The position numbers and the translations under genes were made by a program. Positions 4,337 through 18,305 of a DNA stretch of 64,000 nucleotides are shown here, in pieces; positions within the stretch are counted from its first letter, which is position 1; each line of letters opens with the position of its first letter. The DNA is from Psilocybe cubensis (Eukaryota), in the NCBI GenBank assembly GCA_017499595.2, contig CM038998.1, positions 2,790,001-2,854,000 on the forward strand, written 5' to 3'. The notes under the pieces are model-generated. The model saw only the letters and a list, made by a program, of their open reading frames with translations, was not told where the DNA came from and did not search any database.

Positions 4337-6314
4337 ATGCCCTTGTCGCGTTCGGCCAGGATTATACTCCTGCTCATAATAGATGTCTGTTTCTTTCTTG
4401 TCGAACTCGTTGTTGGTATGTTTTCTAGGCCACGCCTATTCCACGCATTCCGCACAGTTTATTCTATTATCCAGGTTACGCCGTTGGCTCCCTTGCTCTC
4501 GTAGCAGACAGCTTTCATATGCTCAAGTGCGTGTCTCTCCTCGCTCATTATCGTTCTGCATCCTAATCCATTTATCTTGCACAGTGATGTTATGAGCTTG
4601 CTCGTTGCTCTCTATGCCATCAAGGTCCTTGAAACCCCCTTTATCCGTTCTCTCTCTTGTTTACATTCATATCCAATAGCTAACTAACGGAAACTCGCCC
4701 GATTCTCGTTATTCGTACGGTTGGCACAGAGCTGAAATCCTCGCGGCACTCATCAATGGTGTTTTCCTCCTGGCCCTCTGCTTTACCATTTCATTAGAGG
4801 CTATCGAAAGATTTTTCTCTGTACCCGGTGCGCAGGCCTCCTTTGATCCGGGTTGTCATCATACCCTGACCCATGTGGCAGATATCTCCAATCCAAAGCT
4901 TGTCGTCATTGTAGGTTCATTGGGATTGGCATCGAATATCGTTGGATTGTTCCTGTTCCATGGTAAGCTTGGTTGGAGATTCAGATATTGAATATGTCAT
5001 ATATCCATCATGGCTATCTATAGAACACGGTCATAGTCACTCGCATGCACATACACACTCCCCTGCAAGGTCCGAAACCTCTTCCAGTGCTGCCAGTGTC
5101 CACAGCGTGGAGAACACTATTAGAGGCGACACCACCCCTACAAAAAAACAACCAATCCCCGTACGCGGTCGCTCGACTTCCCGCTCGCGCCCTAGCCACA
5201 GTCATGTCCATTCCCCATCGGATTCCTTCTCTTCTCTTTATGGTCATCCTGCCGCGACTCGCGCGTCTCTTATGCAAACTGCCAATGAAATCGCGTCGGC
5301 CCGATCACCCTCACCACCCCGCCATAGCGGCAGTTATACCCATCGCCTGTCTTTCGACTCTTCTGTGGTAACATCTCCCATTGTTCCCCAGGCCACCCCC
5401 GTTACCCCAGGAGCCACGATGGGCTCTCCGGTAGAGTTTTCAAGCGAGGGAACCCCACTTCTGCACGATCCACACGAACATTCCCCGGAAGAACACGGCC
5501 ATGGTGGACCTCATACCCATGGACATTCTCATGGATCAATGAACATGCGAGCTTTGGTACTGCACGTCATCGGGGATGCATTGGGGAACGTCGGGGTCAT
5601 TTCAACGGGCCTTATCATTTGGCTCTCCACCTGGTCGTACAAATATTACTGCGATCCCGTCATCAGTCTGGTGATCACCGTGATTATCTTCTCCAGTGCT
5701 CTTCCACTAGGTATGACTTCATATTACCTATCAATTTTAGTTTTTTCTTTCTTTCTGACTTTTCTATCTCTCTTCTGTGAACATGAACAAACAAAACAGT
5801 TCGGAGCACATCGTTTATCTTGCTGCAAGGAGTTCCACCTACAGTTTCCCTGGAAGAAGTTAAAAATTCCATTCTGAACGTCGACGGCGTTCTGTCTCTC
5901 CATGAATTGCATGTTTGGCAACTGTCTGAAAGCAAGCTAGTTGCTTCTGTTCATGTTCTCGCTTCACGAAATCACGATTTCATGCCTGTCGCCGCAAAGA
6001 TCAGAAAAGTCCTTCATCATCTTGGAATACACTCTTGTACTATACAACCCGAATACTATCATCCCAATACAACAATCCCGGACGAGCATCTCAAGGTAAC
6101 TTGTCCATTTTTTTTTCTTACAAAGGCCTTCTCTAACATCGTTATTCTGATCAGACAAACGGGGAAACCAACTGTCTTATCTTATGTCCACCTGACCAAT
6201 TTTGCGACCCGGCAGAGAACGCTTGTTGTCGTAAGTTGATATTGATTCTTGTTACTCGAACGCGTCTAAATTTTCTCTTCGGCGTTTTACAGCCCCTCCA
6301 CCACCGACCACTGA
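4337..6314 (+). CDS. Cation diffusion facilitator zinc/cobalt transporter (ZRC1/COT1-like)
   Basis: SLALVADSFHML, YGWHRAEILAALING, His-rich loops, NMRALVLHVIGDALGN, LHELHVWQL, HSCTIQPE and a Cys-rich C-terminal tail. Multi-exon. Confidence 0.9.
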
Positions 6315-8531
6315 TGTCTAAAGATCTTGAACCTTGTTTTTTATTTAGTCGAAAGGACATAGTATATCCAACCTTCAGTAGTGTACCACATTCTTTCTGT
6401 AATTACATTATGTATCTTCACTTATGAATGCAGGAACACTGATTTCACTTCCCCAACAGCAGTTCACGCACAATAAGCGCTGGAGAGCGCCATCGAATCC
6501 GAAAATACACCGGAAGTGGGATCTCATTTTTGCAAACGCGTTTTTACACACCGGGTTGCCCCAGGTGTATGGCCTTGGGAGAAAACATGTAGTTGGACCC
6601 TCAAGTTGAGGGTTCATGGCGAGGATCGCCATCACAAGTTCTGGGGATGCAGTCTGTTCGGGAGGTTGTCGTATCGTGACACATTCGAAGAGCCTATGTT
6701 TCTGTGGGCACACATGCAGCCATCCAAATATCAATTGATCACTCTATTCAACGGACATCTTTCTTTTAGATCACCCAATGTGTGTCGTCGTATAAGAGGC
6801 CGTGGTATATTTTAAGGTTTCGGGGAACCCGTTGGCGAATATGCCGCTGGGTATGGACCAGTGTGGCCGGGAACTTGGCCCCTAGGATATTTATGACGTC
6901 GAAAATATATACGAAAGACAAATAGCGAAAAAAGACAAAGACTAAAAGATAGAACGTGTATCGCCTCGCCAATTATTTTACGTGTTTTCTTGACATATAA
7001 ATTGACATTATTACAGACTGTAGGCCGATCCCAACACACCAATGACTGCAAATCGTCAGTGGTTCAATTCATTGTCTCTACTCCGAGGAAGAGACCGCAA
7101 AGGGTACAAACCAAGATGGGGTGCTCCAAGCTCCGAGGCAGCGACGGGAAATGTGGGTACGAGTTCGACATTGAGTTATTCTACAAAGGTATTAAGGTTT
7201 GCAGAAGACCCTTTGTCCCCCGGAAAGGCGGACTTGGAAAGGTTGGCAATGATTTCTAGCCGTGTTCTCGAGCTCTGGCGTCACTTGCGATGGTATTCCT
7301 TAAATGAAAACCAGAGTAACGACTTCTCAGATTTATGGTAAAAAAACCCCAAACCAATAAATGCAGAATAAAGTACGCACGATGAAATCGTCTGAAAGTA
7401 GACAGTGATACATTCAGTCTAAAATATTCAACATGGTATGAAAGAATCCATCCGGGAACATGGCGCGACCTCTTAGTACTATTGGTAAGAATGGCCGAGT
7501 TGGCAAGTGACGCCTGCTGCTCAGATAAATTCAAGGGTTTCTGTATGGAGATGGGTCTGAATCGAACGGGAGGTTGTTATAGCTTGACAAATCACCCAGA
7601 GAATCACGGAGCAGGACAGAGGACGAATGGGCAAGTCCTTCCGAAAGCTCAGACGTCCCAAGTAGTATCCTGAAAGATTGTTGGAGACTGTTTGGGGCTT
7701 CTTGCGTAGCTATCATACATAGCTAATTTTTTTCGCGCGCTTATTCGAGACTCGGATTCAACTATGATGCACGGCGCCTGGTTTTCTAAAATTTGTCAGT
7801 AAAACTACGGTTGACCAACTGGGTTTTGGGTGGATGCAAATTTGGATGATCAAGCTCGGGGCTCGGCGGTGCGTAACGCGATGGGAAACCTTGGTATAGA
7901 CTATGTTGAGACCAGCAGCCCCTTATGGCATGAGGAGAGAAGCCCCTGACTGCCGTTCACAATACTTATTGTAGCAGTGAGGCGTTCCCTTTGGACGAGA
8001 GTGGCAAGCCAATGGCGATCAAACGGGGACACATTTGAGGATAACCAGTAAGGATGGGGCGGGGACTTTGAGAGAGAAGAATGGTCACAGGATTGCAGAG
8101 TAAATCAGCGGGGAAAGAAGATGAGGCATGTGCTTCCCAGTTGTCGGCACGAAAGAGATTCAAACTCAGATTGAGCTCCGCGAACTCACGATGCACCCAC
8201 AACTGGACCTTGACTTACACACGATACTGTTCTGGGTGACCCGCTGGCCAGATATTTCAATAAGCGTCAGGGCGGCTTCTCAATTTGGAACCCTCACTTC
8301 CTCTTCCAGCGACATGATCGTCTATTTATAGTCGCGCGTCAACGGTAATTTATCACTTCGCGACGGCTTGCGGAACATGTATATCCAACTGTGGGGACGT
8401 CCTTGCTATTTGCGTTTATGCCCTCCTGTATCAGATCTGCCAGCTTTCTTACTTGGGGCAAAGCCAGTCAAAACTTGATTATTTCTCTACCCACACCTTG
8501 CGACATTTTAGGGTCGAAATATACATGGTAT

Positions 8532-9797
8532 CTACAGACTGCCTCCCTCACGCTGCAATATTTCCTTGCTTAGATTGTAATACTGCGTGCCAGTTTGTAA
8601 ACTTTCTTCCCATGCATCGAAAAACGTCGATCCTGTACTTACCTTTTGCTCTTCGGCTTGCGTACGGAGGTTGAGCTTGCGAGTCGTATTTTCCATGTGC
8701 ACGAGAAGCGTCTATGGACCTGGTTGATCAAAAGTGCATCATCTGCTGAAGCAGCTTTACACCACGTACCCTGATAGACTTGCTGCTCAAGCCCTTGTAG
8801 GGAGCAACACGTTCCAAACGATCGGGAGTAACCCCAACAAGTGCAAACTGCTCGTGTAGATACATGACATACTGCTCAAGGCACTCGAGATAGTGTCGTT
8901 TCTTTTCATGCGACGAGATAATGTCACTGAAATAGTAGCCGTCAGCGAGATGTATTTATTTACAGAGAGAAAGAGGTGCCCTCACGGATCTGTGGGCGTA
9001 AACCCAATGCTCTTTGCCATCGCGCGCCTACGCGCCTTACTTGCCGATTCGACGCGTCCTTCGCTCAAGCTGTTGTCTGTAAGCTGGTACTGAGCCTGAG
9101 CTTTGGCTTCCAGCTCGGCAAGCCTCAGCTCACTGGGCGTGAGGAAGGTCTCGTGGGAGGACAAGGAATTTCCAGTTTCGTGAAAGAGGGGGAATGATTG
9201 GGAACTAGGTACACCGGGGAACCCATCTGTACAATAAAATTGGTAACCCTCAGAGCAAGAAAGACTTTCTGGCGAGGAAGAGGAGGAGCTGCTCTGTGCG
9301 TCGGTCAAGTGACCTTGGGCAGTGTAAAACACCTCTGGGAGTGCAGGGCCTGCGTTTTCGAGTTGGTAGAAGTAGTCAGGCTGCATAAATGCAGCACCGT
9401 GCGCAGGCGACGGCATGGGTGCATGAATCGGAAACTCGGCAGGAGTGTTGTCTACGGTTTCCGCTACCTAAAAACCGATTGGTTGATTTTACAGACTGAT
9501 AATGTGGATATCGATACTTACATTGGAGAAGTTGCGAGATTCAGCGCCTGGAATGAGGGCTGGCTGAGGCTCTTGCAAGCTAAGATAACTGTAATGCAAA
9601 GATAGCTGGTCCATAGGAACAAGCGGCGGTATATTGTGCACCGTTGTGTCTGGAGATATAAAAGAAAAAGCGGGAGGCGGGAGCTGGTGTCGATCTGGAT
9701 AGAGGACTGCAAAAGGAAAAGAAGACTGGAGTTGGACATGTACGCCAGCTTCATCCGCGCTTGCATTTGAACTCATTTGACCATAAAACGCAGACAT
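8532..9797 (-). CDS. Putative transcription regulator A with basic region and coiled coil (bZIP/bHLH-ZIP-like), about 344 aa; paralog of 10322-11343
   Basis: Exons 9797-9522, 9467-8986, 8926-8770, 8711-8643 and 8582-8532 splice in frame at GT-AG sites. Ser/Pro/acidic N-terminus, then KARRRAMAKSIGFTPTDPDIISSHEKKRHYLECLEQYVMYLHEQF. Confidence 0.7.
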
Positions 9798-10321
9798 CCC
9801 ACGATTTGAGCGCAAGAAGGAGGTGGAGAAGGGCGACTGAGATCTGTGGGCCCCTCTCACCTTTTATTTGCAGACAGATAATGGTGGACAGTCTGTGCCT
9901 GTAGACCGGTTTTGGCAGCTCGGCACTGCAGGAGCGGGTGCGGCCAAGATCTGCTTTTGAATCATGTGTTGCGAGCAAATCCTTGTTCGCCCGCCGTCCA
10001 ACACCAGGCGCAGGATCGAGAAAGATTTTTATGTCTGTGTCGGACACACAATTGTACTTTGGTTTCTGTTATCTTAAAAATTTGAACGCGAGATCCCAGA
10101 TCAAGGGCAGAGTTACGAGATCCAAACTGAATCTGCAAGCGCGGATCGAGTGGGATGACAGGACTACGTACAAACGTCTTTCTCTCCACCCAGATCTTGC
10201 AGTTCAACTATAGCAGTCCCATTTTTCTACTCTCTTCGCTTCTTTCCAAGTCGCCGGGTCCTCCAGGCAAATATAAAGTCTGTCCTTTACACCCAGCTCG
10301 TTTCCCATTTTTTCCTACCAG
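9798..10321. promoter_or_regulatory. Bidirectional promoter between the paralogous regulators, with a RGATC cluster
   Basis: 524 bp between divergent start codons. TATA-like AAATATAAAG near 10269. Eight GATC sites at 9841, 9948, 10014, 10092, 10099, 10119, 10144 and 10193. Confidence 0.55.
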
Positions 10322-11343
10322 ATGGCCCAACAACTCGCTCTGCAGCAGTCTCAGTACAGCAGCCCCTACCCACCTATCATGCTCCCCTGTATCCAGTACC
10401 CCCAGTCTGCCTCTCCCACCTCCTCCCAGTTCACATCAGACTCTGAGAACAATTCACCTGCTCCATCGCCCGTAGAGTACTCGTCTTCAAACGTATACTC
10501 TCAAGAGGCGCCGGTCTCGATTATTTTTAACGCGTCCGATCAACCCACTGATCATTGCGCCACTTTGCGACGCCAAGCGCTTTCGCCGCCGCCGCCATAT
10601 ACAAGCCCATACAGCACATTCCCCCTCGCGGCGCTAGATAATTCTACTATACGCTCGAGTTCAAGATCCCATTCGCGTCCCATGGACAAATCTGCCGCGG
10701 TGAAGAAAATTCAGATCGCTCATCCATACGCGCGCATTTTCGCCAAGAAGGAAGTTGAAGTCAAGCGCCGGAAGATTTGGAATCATGCTCTGGAAAAATC
10801 AATATTCACTCCATATGAGCTGTATGTTCAATAATAATGTATAAACAAACCTAGTCTTACTCAATTTCTCTGTCTCTTTTTCTTTCTTCGTAGATCAACC
10901 CTCGGCGCCCCTCAGAGACGCGCGATCTACATCTCCAGCTTGGAAGCCCACGTTGACCGCCTCCATGAGAGCCTTCTTGCGTAAATATTGTACCCCCCCG
11001 ATTCTACGCGAGCTTAAATGACGACTGATATGTTCATTCTCGCCTTCAGAATAGGATTTTGGCCCGTTCGTTTTGAGGACCTCGACCCTTTCATTGGCCT
11101 CAATTCCAAAACTGCCAAAGTAAGTTTCCGAGTATACCACTCCGGTCACACGTTAATGATCTTGCTCAGTCTATGGTTGCCGGACTTCAGTATGACGCTT
11201 CTATGTGGAAGCTGAAACTGTTAGAGCTCGAACGAGCGGTAAGAGGCTTTCCGACAGGATATCAGTGCAGTTAGACTGACGATGTACATTTTAAGAACGA
11301 TGATCTTCAAAAAATTTATGCAAAGTTGACTTCAGAGTCCTAG
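10322..11343 (+). CDS. Putative transcription regulator B with basic region and coiled coil (bZIP/bHLH-ZIP-like), about 257 aa; paralog of 8532-9797
   Basis: Exons 10322-10821, 10894-10980, 11050-11119, 11170-11238 and 11296-11343 splice in frame. Ser/Pro-rich N-terminus, then KRRKIWNHALEKSIFTPYELSTLGAPQRRAIYISSLEAHVDRLHESL. Confidence 0.7.
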
Positions 11344-11812: not shown

Positions 11813-12586
11813 CTATTGACCGTCGTCGTCCCGAGCCTCGAACTTGTGTTTAGTCTTCCCAGCCACCTCTGTCATACCCTTTCCGCTCCCGGTGACACCG
11901 ACTGGATTTACATGTTAGCCTGAACAGATACTTTCGAGTAAAAGATGCACACCTTTTCCGAGAGGGTTGTCCGGTGTCTTGAAGATGCTCGTCCCTGCCA
12001 CACCTGGGAGGTGCACACCCTTCTTCTCTGACTTCTTCGCAAACTTTTGCCATGTTGCCTGTTTGGCCATCTGCTCTTTGGCTTTGGCAGCTTTGTTCTC
12101 CAGTTTTTTCTCGTTTTTCTTTTTCTTCCGCTCTCTTTCCTCCTCCTCTGCCTTGGACAGCTTACGCTTGTTCGCCGATGGCGCAGTGGTATTTGCATAA
12201 TTTGGTGGTAGAGGCTTGATTTCGTTAGCCTTCACGAGTTCGGTTGAGTTGTACCCTTTGAATACGATGCTGTAGACGCGGTTTTCGGTCGCCCCACCGA
12301 CAGACGTAATCCGGGCGGGGTACCAAGCACCGTCGCCCGAGTACTTTGCAAGACAATCGTCCCCGGCTGACCATACATGCGTCGGCGTAGACGTAGCCTT
12401 CCGGCTTTCCGATTTAGAAGACGACGCAGCTGCTTCCGCTTGAGCAATAGCAGCCTGCGAGAGCTCTATCAATTCCTTCAATTCATCGCGCAAAGAAGCA
12501 AGTTCGGTGTTGGTTGGGTCGGCGGAGAGAGCTACTTCAACCTGAGATAGCTGAACCTGGTACGTCTCGAGATCTGTTCTATCCAT
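11813..12586 (-). CDS. SPF30: Tudor-domain splicing factor SPF30 (SMNDC1-like)
   Basis: LETYQVQLSQVEVALSADPTNTEL, Tudor WSAGDDCLAKYSGDGAWYPARI, WQKF, SIFKTPD..GKVGVTGSGKGMT. One intron near the 3' end. Confidence 0.85.
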
Positions 12587-12768
12587 AAAAGCAAGTTGCG
12601 GGAGGAGTACGAAGCGAAATGAGGAAGTGACAGGAGAGGCAACGAGTATATGACAACAATTGAGTATCAAGGTAAGCACAAGGCTTTCCTCGTTCGGCCA
12701 TGATGCTGCTTTCATATCCGTGAGAGATTATTCCCAATTCGGCCCGAGCGGGCCATTCAACTCTTCCT

Positions 12769-12910: not shown

Positions 12911-12924
12911 TCATCTCCCCTTTT
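12911..12924 (-). other. Polypurine tract (AAAAGGGGAGATGA)
   Basis: Purine run abutting the 3' LTR on the element's sense strand; overlaps the pol stop codon. Confidence 0.9.
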
Positions 12925-15900
12925 ATGCGGCATCTGGGGAAGGTCGAGGACGAGATATACGACCAGAACGAAGGGTGGTAAAAGGAGGGGGTACATAAGA
13001 ACTACGGAGGTTGTTACGAACAGGAGGAGGGGTAGTCGGACGGATGTGTGAAATAGAATCAGAAGGAATGGAAGGGTTTGAATTGTTTTCCTCGGGTACC
13101 GTCGGATTGTCCATGTTGTGGAGGTTACGGTCGAAATCGAAAGTATGAGGGTGTGGTGCACGAGGATGCCGACGGTGGAATCGAGTTAAAAGTTCGTTAT
13201 AAGATGTAGGAATATCAGAAAGTGGAATCCAAGAATCTTCGGAGTCAGAAGAATTTTGCCATCGCACGAGATACTCGTAACGATGACCTACTTTACGACA
13301 ATCAAGGAAGGAAGAAATAGATAATGCGGGGTCATCCGCGAGAACAAAAGGGTCAGGCGAAGCATGGGGGTGGAATTCAGAAGGGTCAGAGTAAGGTTCA
13401 AGAAGCGAAGTATGAAAAACGGGATGTAAACGCGAAAGATAGGGCGGAAGTTTTAAAAGATAAGAATCATTTCCTATTTCTCGAATAACGGGATACGGTC
13501 CCAGGCGACGGTGATCGAGCTTCAACGAAGGGCGCGTGGTACGGATGTTACGACGAAGGAGCCAAACGAGCTGATCAGGGGCGTACTTTGGCGAAGGGAG
13601 AACTTTACGATCAAAAGTTTCCTTCTGACGTTCCTGAGCAAACTGAAGTTCGGCCTTGAGTTCTTGATGAATAACGTCGAGACGTTTGGCTAAGTCTTCA
13701 GCAGCTGGCACCGTAGAAATCTCTGCAATTTGAGGAGAAAAGGTGGGATGATAAGCATAGTTGGCATAAAAAGGTGTTTGTTTGGTCGAAGAATTAACTG
13801 TGTTGTTGAAAACGAACTCGGCGAGTGGTAAGTAATCAACCCAATCATCTTGTTGATAGGAGCAGTATGCACGAAGGTATGTCTCGAGTGACTGATTCGT
13901 CCGTTCAGTAAGACCGTCTGTACGGGGATGATAGGCAGTGGAATGACGAGTTTTAATGTCAAGACGAGACATCAGAGCTTTCCAGAAGTTTGAGACAAAC
14001 AGTGAACCTCGATCCGAGATGATTGAGTCCGGCAGACCATGATAACGAAGTATGCGATCGACAAATAACCACGCAAGATCAGGGGCGGAAATTGTTTCAT
14101 TGCATGGTATGAAATGAGCGGCACGGGTAAGACGATCGCAAACAACCCAAATCGAGTCATAATTGTGGGATTTGGGTAATTTGACGATGAAATCCATCGA
14201 AATAGACTTCCATGGACGCGTAGGAATGTCGAGGGGTTTCAAGAGACCGTAAGGCTTGTGGCGTGGAATCTTGATACGATTACATACGTCGCACGCTTGA
14301 ACATAGCGGCGGATATATGTCTGGACTCCAGGCCAATTGTAGTCACGAAGGACATTACTGGCAGTCAGGGTGCGACCGGGATGACCACTAAGCACACAAT
14401 CATGGCGCTGGTAGAGGATTTCAGCACGCAAGGACTGTGGAACAAAGACACGACCTTTATAAAAAATGATATCATCCTTGACAGAGAAATCCGGGTTTCC
14501 ATGAACGAGTGCTTCGCGCCATTCTGTATCCTCTCGATAGGCCGCCTGGAAACGCTGTAAAAGTTCGGAATTGTCAATAGAAAGGGTTGTAATTGTGGAA
14601 CTAGTAGCAGAAATTGAAATTGTAGGGGTAGGACGAGGAATGGGTGAAGAAAAAGAATGAATGCGTTGAAGATGGTAGGGTGTGAGAAGTGTTTTATTCT
14701 GGGCGACAGAGACGTCATCTCCCCTTTTGGGCTCAAAATCGGGTCGTCGAGAAGGTCCATCGGCTGGATTTTGTAAACCTGGTTTCCAGTCGAGTTGAAA
14801 ATCGAATTCCGAGAGAAACATTGACCAGCGGGCTTGGCGACGATTCAGAACATGGGTATTCATGAAGTATTCCAGATTTTTGTGGTCGCAAAATACTGAA
14901 ATTGGATGAGTAGTACCCATGAGCCAAGCGCGCATATCTCGGAACGAGTCGACAATGGCAAGAAGTTCTTTGTCGTGGACTTCGTAATTGATTTCCGCAG
15001 GGGAGAATTTTCTAGAATAAAAGGCCACAGGGTGGAGAAGACCATCTTTGTCAGGTTGTTGAAGAATACCAGAAAGAGCGAAGTCAGAAGCGTCGGTAGA
15101 AAGAGTGGCAGGTTTGGAAGGATCAAAATGACGTAAAACAGGGTAAGAAGTAAAAGAACGTTTCAAAGTTTCAAAAGCATTTCTTTCGACGTCGGTCCAA
15201 TGAAAAGAAACATTTTTCCGAGTCAAACGATGAAGAGGAAGGGCAATATCTGCATAATGATCAACAAAACGACGGTAAAAATTACAAAATCCAAGAAAAA
15301 CTTGCACATCATGAGTAGAACGAGGTACAGGCCACTCGGCTATCGTGGCAAGCTTCTTAGGGTTCATCTTGATGCCGTCAGCACCAATCAAATACCCCAA
15401 GTACTCAACCTCGGACTTGTCAAATTCACACTTCTTCGGATTAGCGAATAGGCGTGCATCTTTCAAGCGGTCGAGAACGAGCTTGACCTGCATATCGTGT
15501 TCCTCCTGAGTGCGAGAAAATATCAAAATATCATCAAGATAAACAACACAAAATACACCTATAAAATCGCGAAGGGTGTCTTGAATAAAAGCTTGAAAAA
15601 CGGATGGAGCATTGGTAAGACCAAAAGGCATGACAAGGTACTCGTAAAGGCCGAGAGCTGTCCGAAATGCAGTCTTCCACTCATCACCTTCCTTAATGCG
15701 AATCAGATTGAATGCATTTTTAAGGTCGATGACAGTGAATAATTTGCAACCTTGAGTACGATCGAGGAGGTCGTCAATGTGAGGAAGAGGGTAGCGGTTC
15801 TTTTTGGTGATCGCATTCAGCCCGCGGTAATCTACACATAAGCGTAAATCACCCGTCTTCTTGCGAACAAAAAGAATAGGAGAGGCGGCGGAGGATGTAG

Positions 15901-17119
15901 ATCGACGAATAAAGCCTTTTTTGAGATTGTCTTCGATGTACATCGACAAGGCTTTTTGTTCATCCTGGGTTAAACGATACATTGGGCCAAATGGAGGTTC
16001 CTTTCCTTCTTCAATCTCGATTGCACAGTCGTAAGGACGATGAGGAGGTAATTCGTCTACGGCTGTTGGTGAAAAGACTGAATTGGCCCAGGGAAAGTAC
16101 TTTGCAGGAAGTGGTGAGTCGGCTGGAATGGGAGGCGGTTCGGAAATGTCGTCGATAGAAGGTGAAGGTGAGAGGTTAGTAGCGGCAATGTAGGCGGGAG
16201 AATCGGGGGAATGAACACGGAGGAGGCAGACTTGTTGATTTTTTGAATACTTTTTGAAGCGGTTGATGTTGAGGAGTTTGATTTTTGGTTTCGGGTTCAT
16301 GGTGATGTCATCGAGGTTGGAGCGACCGTAGCCAGTCCATCGGGTCATGAAGCTGAGGAACGAAGGTGCGGGAGGGTTACTGGGTGTGGAAGAGGAAGAG
16401 GATTGGGGAGGTGGTGATGGTGATAAGACAGAGGAAAACCAAGGTGAGTCGGCGCGTAGACCAAGGCCTAGCCCTACTCGGGATACAGAACAAGCTTGAA
16501 CAAAACTAGAACTAGAATGACTGTCGAGACCAAAGCCTCTAGGTCGAACTGAAACTCTGTTACTACGAGAAAGATTGCAACAAGATAAAGAAATAAGTGG
16601 ATCAGACCAGTCGACTGCAGGGTTATGACGACGCAGCCAATCTAGTCCTAGAATAATGGGAAATGCTACAGATACTACTGAAAGTGCAATGTTCTCAGAA
16701 TGTTTATCAACAGAAAGATTTGTGAATACATCTTGTGTGACTAGACCCGAAGCAATTGGGCGGTCGTCAACAGCAAGTATTGGAACAGGAACAGGTTTTA
16801 AACGGCGTGGAAGAGAATAACGAGTGGCAAAACGGTCAGAAATACACGAATCTGTGCAACCAGAATCGATTAAGGCATAAGTATGAATGGGTTTGTGATT
16901 CGGAAAAGATAAAGTAACGTTAATAAAGAAATGAGCAGGCGAAATTGAAGCAGAAGAATGGGCAGAAGAGAAAACATAAACAGGAGCAGGAAGACGAACT
17001 GGTAACCAGCGTCCGTCAGAACAACGAACGTGGCTGGCCGCCGAAATGGTCTGATGGGCCCTCTCATCTTTTTCCGGCAGCTCAAGGGCCAACGAAGAAC
17101 TACCGGTCAGGCTTTTCCC
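12923..17119 (-). CDS. pol: Retrotransposon Pol (protease, reverse transcriptase, RNase H, integrase, chromodomain), expressed by -1 frameshift from gag
   Basis: ALIDSGCT (PR); LRLCVDYRGLN, MPFGLTNAP, VYLDDILIFS (RT); TDASDF, DHKNL (RH); H..GH..C..C, SDRG, TERTN (IN); GPY; YEYLVRW..DSW (chromodomain). ORF 12923-17218 has no internal stop. Confidence 0.95.
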   Translation of the reverse strand, partial: GKSLTGSSSLALELPEKDERAHQTISAASHVRCSDGRWLPVRLPAPVYVFSSAHSSASISPAHFFINVTLSFPNHKPIHTYALIDSGCTDSCISDRFATRYSLPRRLKPVPVPILAVDDRPIASGLVTQDVFTNLSVDKHSENIALSVVSVAFPIILGLDWLRRHNPAVDWSDPLISLSCCNLSRSNRVSVRPRGFGLDSHSSSSFVQACSVSRVGLGLGLRADSPWFSSVLSPSPPPQSSSSSTPSNPPAPSFLSFMTRWTGYGRSNLDDITMNPKPKIKLLNINRFKKYSKNQQVCLLRVHSPDSPAYIAATNLSPSPSIDDISEPPPIPADSPLPAKYFPWANSVFSPTAVDELPPHRPYDCAIEIEEGKEPPFGPMYRLTQDEQKALSMYIEDNLKKGFIRRSTSSAASPILFVRKKTGDLRLCVDYRGLNAITKKNRYPLPHIDDLLDRTQGCKLFTVIDLKNAFNLIRIKEGDEWKTAFRTALGLYEYLVMPFGLTNAPSVFQAFIQDTLRDFIGVFCVVYLDDILIFSRTQEEHDMQVKLVLDRLKDARLFANPKKCEFDKSEVEYLGYLIGADGIKMNPKKLATIAEWPVPRSTHDVQVFLGFCNFYRRFVDHYADIALPLHRLTRKNVSFHWTDVERNAFETLKRSFTSYPVLRHFDPSKPATLSTDASDFALSGILQQPDKDGLLHPVAFYSRKFSPAEINYEVHDKELLAIVDSFRDMRAWLMGTTHPISVFCDHKNLEYFMNTHVLNRRQARWSMFLSEFDFQLDWKPGLQNPADGPSRRPDFEPKRGDDVSVAQNKTLLTPYHLQRIHSFSSPIPRPTPTISISATSSTITTLSIDNSELLQRFQAAYREDTEWREALVHGNPDFSVKDDIIFYKGRVFVPQSLRAEILYQRHDCVLSGHPGRTLTASNVLRDYNWPGVQTYIRRYVQACDVCNRIKIPRHKPYGLLKPLDIPTRPWKSISMDFIVKLPKSHNYDSIWVVCDRLTRAAHFIPCNETISAPDLAWLFVDRILRYHGLPDSIISDRGSLFVSNFWKALMSRLDIKTRHSTAYHPRTDGLTERTNQSLETYLRAYCSYQQDDWVDYLPLAEFVFNNTVNSSTKQTPFYANYAYHPTFSPQIAEISTVPAAEDLAKRLDVIHQELKAELQFAQERQKETFDRKVLPSPKYAPDQLVWLLRRNIRTTRPSLKLDHRRLGPYPVIREIGNDSYLLKLPPYLSRLHPVFHTSLLEPYSDPSEFHPHASPDPFVLADDPALSISSFLDCRKVGHRYEYLVRWQNSSDSEDSWIPLSDIPTSYNELLTRFHRRHPRAPHPHTFDFDRNLHNMDNPTVPEENNSNPSIPSDSISHIRPTTPPPVRNNLRSSYVPPPFTTLRSGRISRPRPSPDAA
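17057..17119 (-). promoter_or_regulatory. -1 ribosomal frameshift signal: slippery G GGA AAA plus H-type pseudoknot
   Basis: Heptamer at 17119-17113 in the gag frame, 6-nt spacer, stem 1 CCGGUAGUUC/GAGCUGCCGG, stem 2 GGCCCU/AGGGCC. Pol is in the -1 frame relative to gag. Confidence 0.8.
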
Positions 17120-18201
17120 GACGAGGGAGCAGCCTTTCTCTTCTCCTTCGACTTTGCTTTTGCTGATTTGTTGGGACAATTTGCAGCCAAATGTTGTCCT
17201 TGTCCGCAATACAAACAAAGATGCTCGTTAAGACGACGTTGACGTTCTTCGGACGTAATGCCTCGACGCATAGCATCAACTTCCATGGGCACAACATCCG
17301 GGTTGCTAGACGTAGATGCATGTTGAGGAGGAGCGATGATGGAATGGTTTGAGAAGGAATTTCTTTTGGGTACAAAGGACGAGTTTGCTCTGCGATTAAG
17401 TGAGAGTTCATGAAGTTCATTGTCGATAACAATACATAGCTTGTAAAACTCCACAAATTTCTCCGTAAAATATCGCCCTTTGCGATTTACCAAGGTATCC
17501 TGCACCGTATCCTTCAATCCATCGAAGTAGTGCTGAATTTTCGTCTGATCGGTCCAGTTAAGCTCACTGACAAGTTCGAGAAAGCGCGAAGTGTAATCGG
17601 CGGCGGAACCGGTTTGTCGAAGCTTGCGCAACTTGCGTAAAGCTTTAGCATAACGATCCGGCTCGTCGAAGTGTTCAATAAAGTCCTTGACAAGTAACTC
17701 GAAGTTGTCAAGGAGTCCACGTTTCTCAGGCGAGCGTTCGACCGTAGTGTACCAGCTTGTCGGAGTGCCATCTGCAAGGTACAATGCAAAATATTGACAC
17801 TTCGCAAGTTCGGTCGAGAACGCATTAGCTTGGAGGTTGAGTGCGTAACGAATCTCGCGCAGGAAAGGTTCGACTTCATCAGCCTTCCCGTTAAATTTGC
17901 GCGGTTCACGGAACTTGGGTACACTCGAACTGGCCGCGGCTGGGCGTGAAAGCGTCAAGCGTTCCATCATTGCATTGAGAACGGCATTGGTAGCAGCCGT
18001 GCTTTCGGTTTGATGTCGCACGAAACTGTCCATGTTTGTTCCCAAAGCAAAGATGCTTCGATACAACACATCTCGCTCATGATCGACGGAAGAGAATGGT
18101 GATTGGTTGGAGGTTTGTTGACTTTCTGAGGGTTGTTGAGGGTTGAGAGTTGGATATTCAAAGGGAGGGAGTGAAGAGGATGACTGGGGATTCTGAGACA
18201 T
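17107..18201 (-). CDS. gag: Retrotransposon Gag with CCHC zinc knuckle
   Basis: PRKFNG, LRQTGSAADYTSRF, VPMEVD and CLYCGQGQHLAANC; 364-aa intact ORF. Confidence 0.93.
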   Translation of the reverse strand: MSQNPQSSSSLPPFEYPTLNPQQPSESQQTSNQSPFSSVDHERDVLYRSIFALGTNMDSFVRHQTESTAATNAVLNAMMERLTLSRPAAASSSVPKFREPRKFNGKADEVEPFLREIRYALNLQANAFSTELAKCQYFALYLADGTPTSWYTTVERSPEKRGLLDNFELLVKDFIEHFDEPDRYAKALRKLRKLRQTGSAADYTSRFLELVSELNWTDQTKIQHYFDGLKDTVQDTLVNRKGRYFTEKFVEFYKLCIVIDNELHELSLNRRANSSFVPKRNSFSNHSIIAPPQHASTSSNPDVVPMEVDAMRRGITSEERQRRLNEHLCLYCGQGQHLAANCPNKSAKAKSKEKRKAAPSSGKA

Positions 18202-18305
18202 TGTTGATTGTACACGGTTGGGCAGGTTTTCGTGGGAAAGAAGATAATATAAACTGGGGTAAGTTAAATTAGACTGAATACAAAGTTGTCAAGAATATGT
18301 TAGTG

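Follow-up and report, generated by a model that had tools for sequence, protein, structure and literature searches.

Proteins of the bHLH (basic helix-loop-helix) type bind the E-box (CANNTG) and carry a basic region with a Glu-x2-Arg signature that is continuous with helix 1, and in bHLH-Zip dimers, the two subunits are packed into a parallel four-helix bundle, beyond which the dimer runs on as a zipper. Myc/Max, SREBP/Sre1, and yeast Ino2/Ino4 are examples of bHLH and bHLH-Zip proteins, and factors of this type often act as heterodimers of paralogs. Here, we describe two head-to-head genes, A and B, at positions 8532-11343 of a 64,000-nucleotide (nt) stretch of Psilocybe cubensis DNA (assembly GCA_017499595.2, contig CM038998.1, positions 2,790,001 to 2,854,000), referred to below as the window, in the numbering of which coordinates are given. 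The products of these genes may be the partners in a dimeric regulator that is specific to mushroom-forming fungi. This regulator would be of the HLH-zipper type, with both subunits produced under one conserved bidirectional control region, and would act early in fruiting; we put the probability of this reading at about one half. A heterodimeric regulator had already been proposed in the original prediction, and that proposal is now partly supported by the old paralogy of the two genes, their retained divergent arrangement, a conserved intergenic block, and the predicted binding of A to B. We infer DNA binding, a role as a transcription factor, coordinated expression, and a function of the pair in fruiting.

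Gene structure, paralogy and linkage

Gene A (8532..9797, minus strand; ATG at 9797, stop codon at 8532-8534) encodes 344 amino acids in exons 9522-9797, 8986-9467, 8770-8926, 8643-8711, and 8532-8582, which are separated by introns 9468-9521, 8927-8985, 8712-8769, and 8583-8642. Gene B (10322..11343, plus strand; ATG at 10322, stop codon at 11341-11343) encodes 257 amino acids in exons 10322-10821, 10894-10980, 11050-11119, 11170-11238, and 11296-11343, with introns 10822-10893, 10981-11049, 11120-11169, and 11239-11295. When the exons were joined by their coordinates with a script, both frames remained open and all eight introns were of the GT..AG type on the coding strand. Contigs from two sequencing runs (X1 and X2) omit these eight stretches, whereas contigs from two further runs of the same organism (X3 and X4) span them unbroken; X1 and X2 are thus spliced and were taken as RNA-derived solely for the reason that their contigs are without introns. 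In X1, each gene is represented by a spliced contig (one record spans 8490-9843, i.e., gene A, and a second spans gene B), and X2 represents them in part. The intergenic bins at 9965-10186 have zero cover in X1 and X2, from which no inference was drawn. The two divergent spliced genes that had been proposed from the sequence are therefore real in the spliced contigs as well as in their open frames, with a correction of one or two bases at two B exon borders: exon 1 ends at 10821, not at 10823, and exon 3 occupies 11050-11119. In Coprinopsis cinerea, two isoforms (P0027 and P0028) are annotated for the A ortholog CC2G_001071; the shorter, P0027, stops just past an SIR motif by reading into the intron that matches 8712-8769 of the window, and it would be without the long C-terminal helix.

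The exon structures of the two genes correspond closely. Intron phases are 0, 2, 0, 0 in A and 2, 2, 0, 0 in B; the 157-nt A exon 8770-8926 equals the sum of B exons 10894-10980 (87 nt) and 11050-11119 (70 nt), and A exon 8643-8711 has the size of B exon 11170-11238 (69 nt each). The predicted equalities of exon size, as well as the three introns predicted to share position and phase, hold in the spliced models: the common introns lie before the core (phase 2), after 157 nt (phase 0), and after a further 69 nt (phase 0), and B has one intron more than A within the core region. The core exons of A (8643..8926, minus strand; 157 nt and 69 nt, with intron 8712-8769 between them) encode helix 1 (SSHEKKRHYLECLEQYVMYLHEQF), a loop with Pro and Gly-Leu, and the start of a long C-terminal helix. 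In the A protein, a disordered N-terminus rich in S, P, Q, and Y is followed by an FLTPSEL motif at residue 200, a basic patch (KARRRAMAKS) at residue 236, and the core from SSHEKKR at residue 257. The B protein likewise has a disordered N-terminus, then IAHPYARIF at residue 132, a basic helix (KRRKIWNHALEKS) at residue 148, and the core from GAPQRR at residue 171.

The gapless 55-residue core, which had been noticed in the sequence, contains 16 identities between A and B, a number reached in none of 20,000 shuffles. BLASTP aligns the spliced proteins with 31 identities over 101 positions (E 5e-11), and hhalign relates 84 A-type to 56 B-type sequences over 127 columns with a probability of 97.5% (E 6.9e-12), or 93.5% (E 2.3e-7) when smaller A and B alignments are used. 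A tree built from 72 core sequences separates 46 of type A from 26 of type B with a support of 100/100 on long branches, which indicates that the duplication is old; one sequence labelled as B by a regular expression falls in the A clade. Judged by these comparisons, A and B are old paralogs, as had been anticipated, and make up two sister clades of one family. Both types are present in Hymenochaetales (Sanghuangporus ACEPAG_606 and 607), and on this evidence both clades have been kept since before that order split off. The pair might have originated by an ancient inverted duplication.

Further features of the two families may be mentioned here. An R-R-H-S motif, which could be a site for a basophilic kinase, occurs past the coiled coil in many A- and B-type proteins and is aligned between the families by hhalign; an F-P-T-P-S-E-L-L motif is conserved upstream in A-type proteins. 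The intron content of B differs by lineage. In one metagenome locus (L049, 5473-5802, minus strand), B reads unbroken from the YEL motif into STLGAP, so that the intron common with A is absent, and in another (L044, 3257-3615, minus strand) this intron is kept; the additional intron specific to B is present in both.

The family is large and is found in mushroom-forming fungi. A search with the A core exon yielded 37 proteins among 41 candidates, all of them hypothetical or unnamed and none with a Pfam domain, at 65-79% identity in the core; the closest named match comes from an agaric, Phlegmacium glaucopus, and the named genera presumably belong to Agaricales and Boletales. The conserved end of B exon 1 matched 38 proteins, which are also unnamed and without a Pfam domain. 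With a joint profile of A and B, the number of matching cluster representatives was 555 at E<=1e-3, falling to 372 at <=1e-10 and to 148 at <=1e-30, and the best 150 were listed; all that were inspected are A-like or B-like. A word-based profile search returned 146 matches; every named member among the 120 listed is, as we take it, an Agaricomycete, and we assign these named members to Agaricales, Boletales, Polyporales, Russulales, Gloeophyllales, Atheliales, Corticiales, and Hymenochaetales. Lineages were checked for Sanghuangporus (Hymenochaetales), Punctularia (Corticiales), and Phlegmacium (Agaricales). In the ESM Atlas, B matched only unnamed Basidiomycota clusters and A had no usable named match. 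A description of the family or of its head-to-head pairing was not found in the literature searched, and the searched text of one article (PMC10282164) contains no mention of helix-loop-helix proteins, head-to-head pairs, or bidirectional promoters. The view that the family has no recognised name holds for Pfam, where there is no curated family name. The family is nonetheless not wholly unlabelled, since three A-type members carry an automatic name in UniRef, which is discussed below.

The head-to-head arrangement is conserved. The A and B genes have consecutive locus tags or accessions in nine species: Coprinopsis cinerea (CC2G_001071/72 in AmutBmut and CC1G_06766/65 in Okayama), Crassisporium funariophilum (792686/87), Punctularia strigosozonata (EIN13687/88), Amanita phalloides (006329/28), Amanita muscaria (006118/19), Termitomyces Mi166 (010076/77), Termitomyces T159 (007565/64), Flammula alnicola (1912436/35), and Sanghuangporus baumii (ACEPAG_606/607). 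In four further species (Hebeloma, Galerina, Pluteus, and Amanita polypyramis), the two genes lie on one contig. As an independent test, metagenome contigs were scanned with the A alignment, which gave 55 loci, and B was sought in these by tblastn. A relative of B was present on the opposite strand upstream of A at 29 of the 55 loci, and a partial B lay at the contig edge at one. At 24 loci no B was found, and in all of these the sequence upstream of the matched A segment is shorter than 1,860 nt; 593-2,590 nt were needed at the positive loci. After loci had been collapsed at 93% DNA identity, 32 clusters remained (18 head-to-head, one at a contig edge, one tandem, and 12 that could not be judged), i.e., the arrangement is head-to-head in 18 of 20 judgeable clusters. 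Both A and B occur at every metagenome locus with sufficient flank. The expectation that relatives retain the divergent layout is thus borne out across Agaricales, Corticiales, and Hymenochaetales, as well as in most of the metagenome relatives.

The shared intergenic region and expression

The start codons of A and B are separated by 524 nt (9798..10321), a candidate bidirectional promoter by virtue of the gene models and of k-mers that are over-represented in relatives. The commonest 8-mers occur in 8 of 14 intergenic regions (13 distinct loci and the window), compared with a mean of maxima of 4.8 and a highest value of 7 in 100 shuffles. These 8-mers, together with an alignment of eight locus clusters and the window, define a conserved non-coding block at 10088..10172 (plus strand). 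It contains AGATC-type repeats (10091-10102, 10117-10124, and 10129-10135), which precede GCGCGGATCGA (10139-10149), 11 nt that are invariant across all eight clusters and the window, lie 172 nt upstream of the B ATG and 342 nt upstream of the A ATG, and are followed by G at 10150. Next comes ATGACAGGACTACGTAC (10155-10171), which contains the palindrome TACGTA; a TACGTA-containing stretch follows GCGCGGATCGA in five of the nine aligned sequences. The GCGCGGATCGA block is present in a single copy in the window, a count that by itself is not significant because at least one match with up to one mismatch occurs in 66 of 100 shuffles. A putative TATA-like element, ATATAAAG, can be read upstream of B at 10271..10278 (plus strand), and similar A/T-rich boxes come after the conserved block in three metagenome loci (L047, L046, and L004). 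The idea of one promoter region shared by both genes, as originally proposed, fits the conserved intergenic block, at least as far as sequence conservation can indicate a common control region. It is reasonable to assume that the pair would be kept head-to-head around this common region with its conserved cis-block, which would supply both subunits together.

A possible role in fruiting is suggested by Coprinopsis cinerea, in which CC1G_06766 is the A ortholog. In a published data set (PMC3606632), the tag count of this gene per 100,000 is 0 in mycelium and 244.6 in the stage-1 primordium, where it belongs to the top 15 induced genes; it is given there as having no BLASTX homolog. The A subunit would thus be switched on in this species at primordium formation.

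The layout of the locus also calls to mind the HD1/HD2 mating-type genes, that is, a self/non-self recognition system in which the active heterodimer would be formed from the products of different alleles. Such a system would be consistent with a divergent basidiomycete pair that encodes predicted partners. Alleles of mating-type homeodomain genes are, however, highly divergent, whereas the contigs of four runs (two studies) show only 4 to 12 differing places in 3,301 nt when compared with the window, and this low variation speaks against a polymorphic system of the mating type. The core is also 65-79% identical across orders, and no homeodomain match appeared in the Pfam scans. The mating-type reading was rejected on the grounds of the missing homeodomain and the low variation among runs, and we regard it as highly improbable.

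The predicted dimerisation core and its class

AlphaFold2 models of the two C. cinerea proteins show disordered N-termini and a helix-loop-long-helix arrangement in the C-terminal part. In A (P0028), helices span residues 128-141, 195-219, and 238-279, the latter two with a mean predicted local distance difference test score (pLDDT) of 83-98 in blocks of 10 residues; in B (P0052), for which the mean pLDDT is 64.6, they span residues 70-87 (basic), 90-95, 98-122, 130-136, and 141-180. The complex of A residues 160-285 with B residues 55-181 was predicted with ESMFold2 for the hetero pair only and without family alignments. The resulting ipSAE (interaction prediction score from aligned errors) was 0.79, compared with 0.02 for the best of three controls, so that the proposed A:B pairing passed a controlled in silico test of binding. 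In benchmarks, 51 of 78 solved complexes attained the mark used for ipSAE, as did 2 of 108 mismatched pairs; for eukaryotes, the figures were 39 of 65 among solved pairs that have no similar older complex and 2 of 126 among unrelated pairs. At least 82% of contacts agreed between runs, the pLDDT of the partner was at least 83, and the interface comprised 242-276 contacts.

The predicted contacts are parallel and in register, both in the first helix (A206-B109, A209/210-B113, and A213-B116/117) and in the long helix (A266-B169 and A269-B172). They are accompanied by cross contacts between the start of the A long helix (A236-248) and B helix 1 (B110-117) and between A205 and B152. The conserved upstream segment of B (residues 57-62 and 81-88) also contacts A in the model. 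The predicted pattern is that of a parallel four-helix bundle running on as a zipper; the model supports binding of A to B without showing it. Within this context, each subunit would consist of a long disordered N-terminus resembling an activation domain, a basic patch, a 25-residue amphipathic helix with a polar or basic head (I-S-S-H-E-K-K-R in A and A-P-x-R-R in B), a conserved 18-residue loop (Pro ... Gly-Leu), and a helix of at least 40 residues. The dimerisation core would be a helix-loop-helix followed by a zipper; the two cores would pack in parallel as a four-helix bundle, from which the long helices would extend as a two-stranded coiled coil, and such a layout would let the N-terminal basic ends reach DNA.

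To which class this core belongs is a question of its details. The name BHLH domain-containing protein, an automatic UniRef name presumably derived from the PROSITE bHLH profile (PS50888), appears on three of the 120 listed matches, all A-type; since these three members are without the upstream basic patch, the name must rest on the helix-loop-long-helix core. At the start of helix 1, polar residues are invariant or nearly so in the alignments. In A, this head is I-S-S-H-E-K-K-R, invariant or nearly so across 84 sequences, and its H-E-K-K-R includes E-x2-R, so that the statement that neither protein has this signature was wrong for A. The corresponding head of B, G-A-P-x-R-R, has no Glu and contains a helix breaker, and the E-V-K-R-R of B sits in a separate upstream basic helix. 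The absence of the bZIP signature N-x7-R, on the other hand, is confirmed in both alignments. A bZIP reading was rejected because there is no Pfam bZIP match, the predicted helix is broken by the Pro/Gly loop, and N-x7-R is absent. A mapping made by eye, in which the upstream basic patch represented the bHLH basic region with helix 1 and the 25-residue helix represented helix 2, was dropped because the BHLH-named members lack the patch and the predicted bundle is built of the 25-residue helix and the long helix. Given the negative Pfam results, the automatic BHLH name, the nearly invariant helix 1 head of A, and the G-A-P-x-R-R of B, the pair is filed here as HLH-like and not as bHLH, its membership of the bHLH class being unproven.

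Searches for structural relatives gave little. With both monomer models, Foldseek found no match at E<=0.001, and VIA-align, which was applied to the monomer models only, gave best Z values of 4.6 and 5.3 for single long helices only, among them those of Max and SREBP. A search of PDB sequences with the A and B family profiles returned chance matches only (E>=0.2), and Pfam scans of single-exon translations gave no HLH match but only noise below the threshold, such as DUF6851 and DUF4078.

Several observations weigh against a dimeric DNA-binding regulator encoded by a co-regulated pair. A Pfam HLH or bZIP match is found in none of 14 full-length members even at E<=10, and the listed homologs from the A core, B exon 1, and profile searches carry no precomputed Pfam domain. 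The upstream basic patch is absent in the three members named BHLH, and in A, it is non-helical and of low confidence in the AlphaFold2 model. A symmetric grip on DNA of the bHLH type is doubtful, since B has no signature Glu and its Gly-Ala-Pro would break the helix at the head of helix 1. A pass in the A:B binding test can also come from likeness to solved HLH or zipper dimers or from a close relative of the true partner. At the level of the locus, the A and B tags of Amanita polypyramis are 26 apart on a single 88-kb contig, and at one of the 55 metagenome loci (L050, of the pair L050/L051), B lies on the same strand as A and downstream of it; this tandem locus (5658-8398) is a close copy of a head-to-head locus in the same assembly (L009, 4283-6655), and the two may have arisen by recent duplication followed by rearrangement, represent two haplotypes, or reflect a misassembly. 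Finally, searches of the main text and of 12 of the 13 supplement files of PMC3606632 did not turn up the B ortholog CC1G_06765.

Within this set of observations, it might be supposed that A and B dimerise through their HLH/zipper core without binding DNA and function as an adaptor or co-regulator of the coiled-coil kind, for instance by sequestering or recruiting other factors, with the basic patches serving as nuclear-localisation signals only. Pfam detects no DNA-binding family in these proteins, the unbroken run of basic residues that precedes helix 1 is short (three in A and two in B), B has its helix-breaking G-A-P at this very place, and the fold searches matched single long helices only. 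However, the near-invariance of I-S-S-H-E-K-K-R in A fits a specific recognition surface better than the start of a coiled coil, the long low-complexity N-termini appear to resemble activation domains, and three members bear the automatic bHLH name. On balance, a dimer of this kind seems unlikely to us.

It is also conceivable that A and B, as co-regulated paralogs, chiefly form homodimers or bind other partners, the head-to-head arrangement being kept for the bidirectional promoter only. Extra single-type copies in some genomes (two B-type in Phellopilus and two A-type in Hymenopellis) would accord with such a situation, and a pass in the binding test is likewise obtained with close relatives of a true partner. 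In addition, B Asn169 lies at the predicted zipper core opposite A Phe266, and an Asn in the core would allow B:B pairing of the kind found in classical zippers. Nevertheless, the presence of both types wherever the flank suffices, the retention of both clades over so long a time, and the high score and extensive interface of the predicted hetero-complex all argue for pairing of A with B, and we would give independent homodimers little weight.

The preferred reading, a dimeric HLH-zipper-type regulator, can be carried further. The pair might encode an obligate heterodimeric DNA-binding factor that represents a new, Agaricomycetes-restricted branch of HLH proteins and has an asymmetric head, made up of the I-S-S-H-E-K-K-R helix of A and the upstream basic helix of B; this factor might bind the GATC core and TACGTA in its own bidirectional promoter, i.e., exert positive autoregulation, and act as an early switch of primordium initiation. 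We consider this fuller version speculative and, taken as a whole, improbable.

Genomic setting, implications and known systems

On the B side of the pair, a 270-residue frame at 11915-12727 (minus strand) has a Tudor-like segment and a lysine-rich tail and looks SMN/SPF30-like by eye; the X1 contig that covers B (2,011 nt) extends past 11600 towards this gene, and a similar stretch adjoins the A/B pair in two metagenome loci (L010/L011), there on the side of A, not of B. About 1.6 kb from the stop codon of gene B, what appears by eye to be a Ty3/gypsy-type retrotransposon occupies 12923-18288 (minus strand), with frames bearing protease, reverse-transcriptase, RNase H, integrase, and chromodomain-like motifs (1434 residues) and a Gag-like frame with a zinc knuckle (393 residues). 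At 4915-6239 (plus strand), His-rich frames followed by hydrophobic segments resemble, by eye, a cation-diffusion-facilitator (zinc) transporter.

The A and B genes can be missed in bHLH surveys of mushroom genomes. One fungal bHLH survey (PMC11855202) was made by searching with Pfam PF00010; because PF00010 fails to detect the A/B family, a survey based on it misses these proteins. The family is a large one, and in PMC3606632 its A member from Coprinopsis is among the most strongly primordium-induced genes. Moreover, a paralog pair with a shared conserved promoter block constitutes a compact, testable module of two genes and one cis-element, which would be useful for studying how fruiting switches on and how bidirectional pairs that encode partners persist.

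Among the known systems, the bHLH and bHLH-Zip proteins are the closest in layout. As in these, basic residues in A and B stand directly before an amphipathic helix, which is followed by a loop and by a long second helix extended as a zipper; the predicted A:B dimer is a parallel four-helix bundle, and A has E-x2-R. Unlike bHLH proteins, however, A and B are invisible to Pfam, their helix 1 is approximately 25 residues long, and their 18-residue loop is itself strongly conserved, with invariant Pro and Gly-Leu. In B, the differences go further: there is no Glu, G-A-P precedes helix 1, and an additional conserved upstream basic helix touches A in the model. Another difference from bHLH proteins is that the genes are maintained as a divergent pair. 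What A and B appear to have in common with bZIP proteins is a basic patch, a coiled coil rich in leucine (in B with an Asn in its core), and, as far as the model indicates, dimerisation, whereas a continuous basic-zipper helix is lacking, an 18-residue Pro/Gly loop intervenes, and there is neither N-x7-R nor a Pfam bZIP match. The HD1/HD2 (bE/bW) genes provide the nearest parallel in gene arrangement, i.e., divergent neighbouring genes whose products heterodimerise (as is predicted for A and B), in an arrangement conserved in Agaricomycetes. Nonetheless, the pair described here differs from HD1/HD2 in that it has no homeodomain, consists of clear paralogs, varies little among strains, and is highly conserved across orders.

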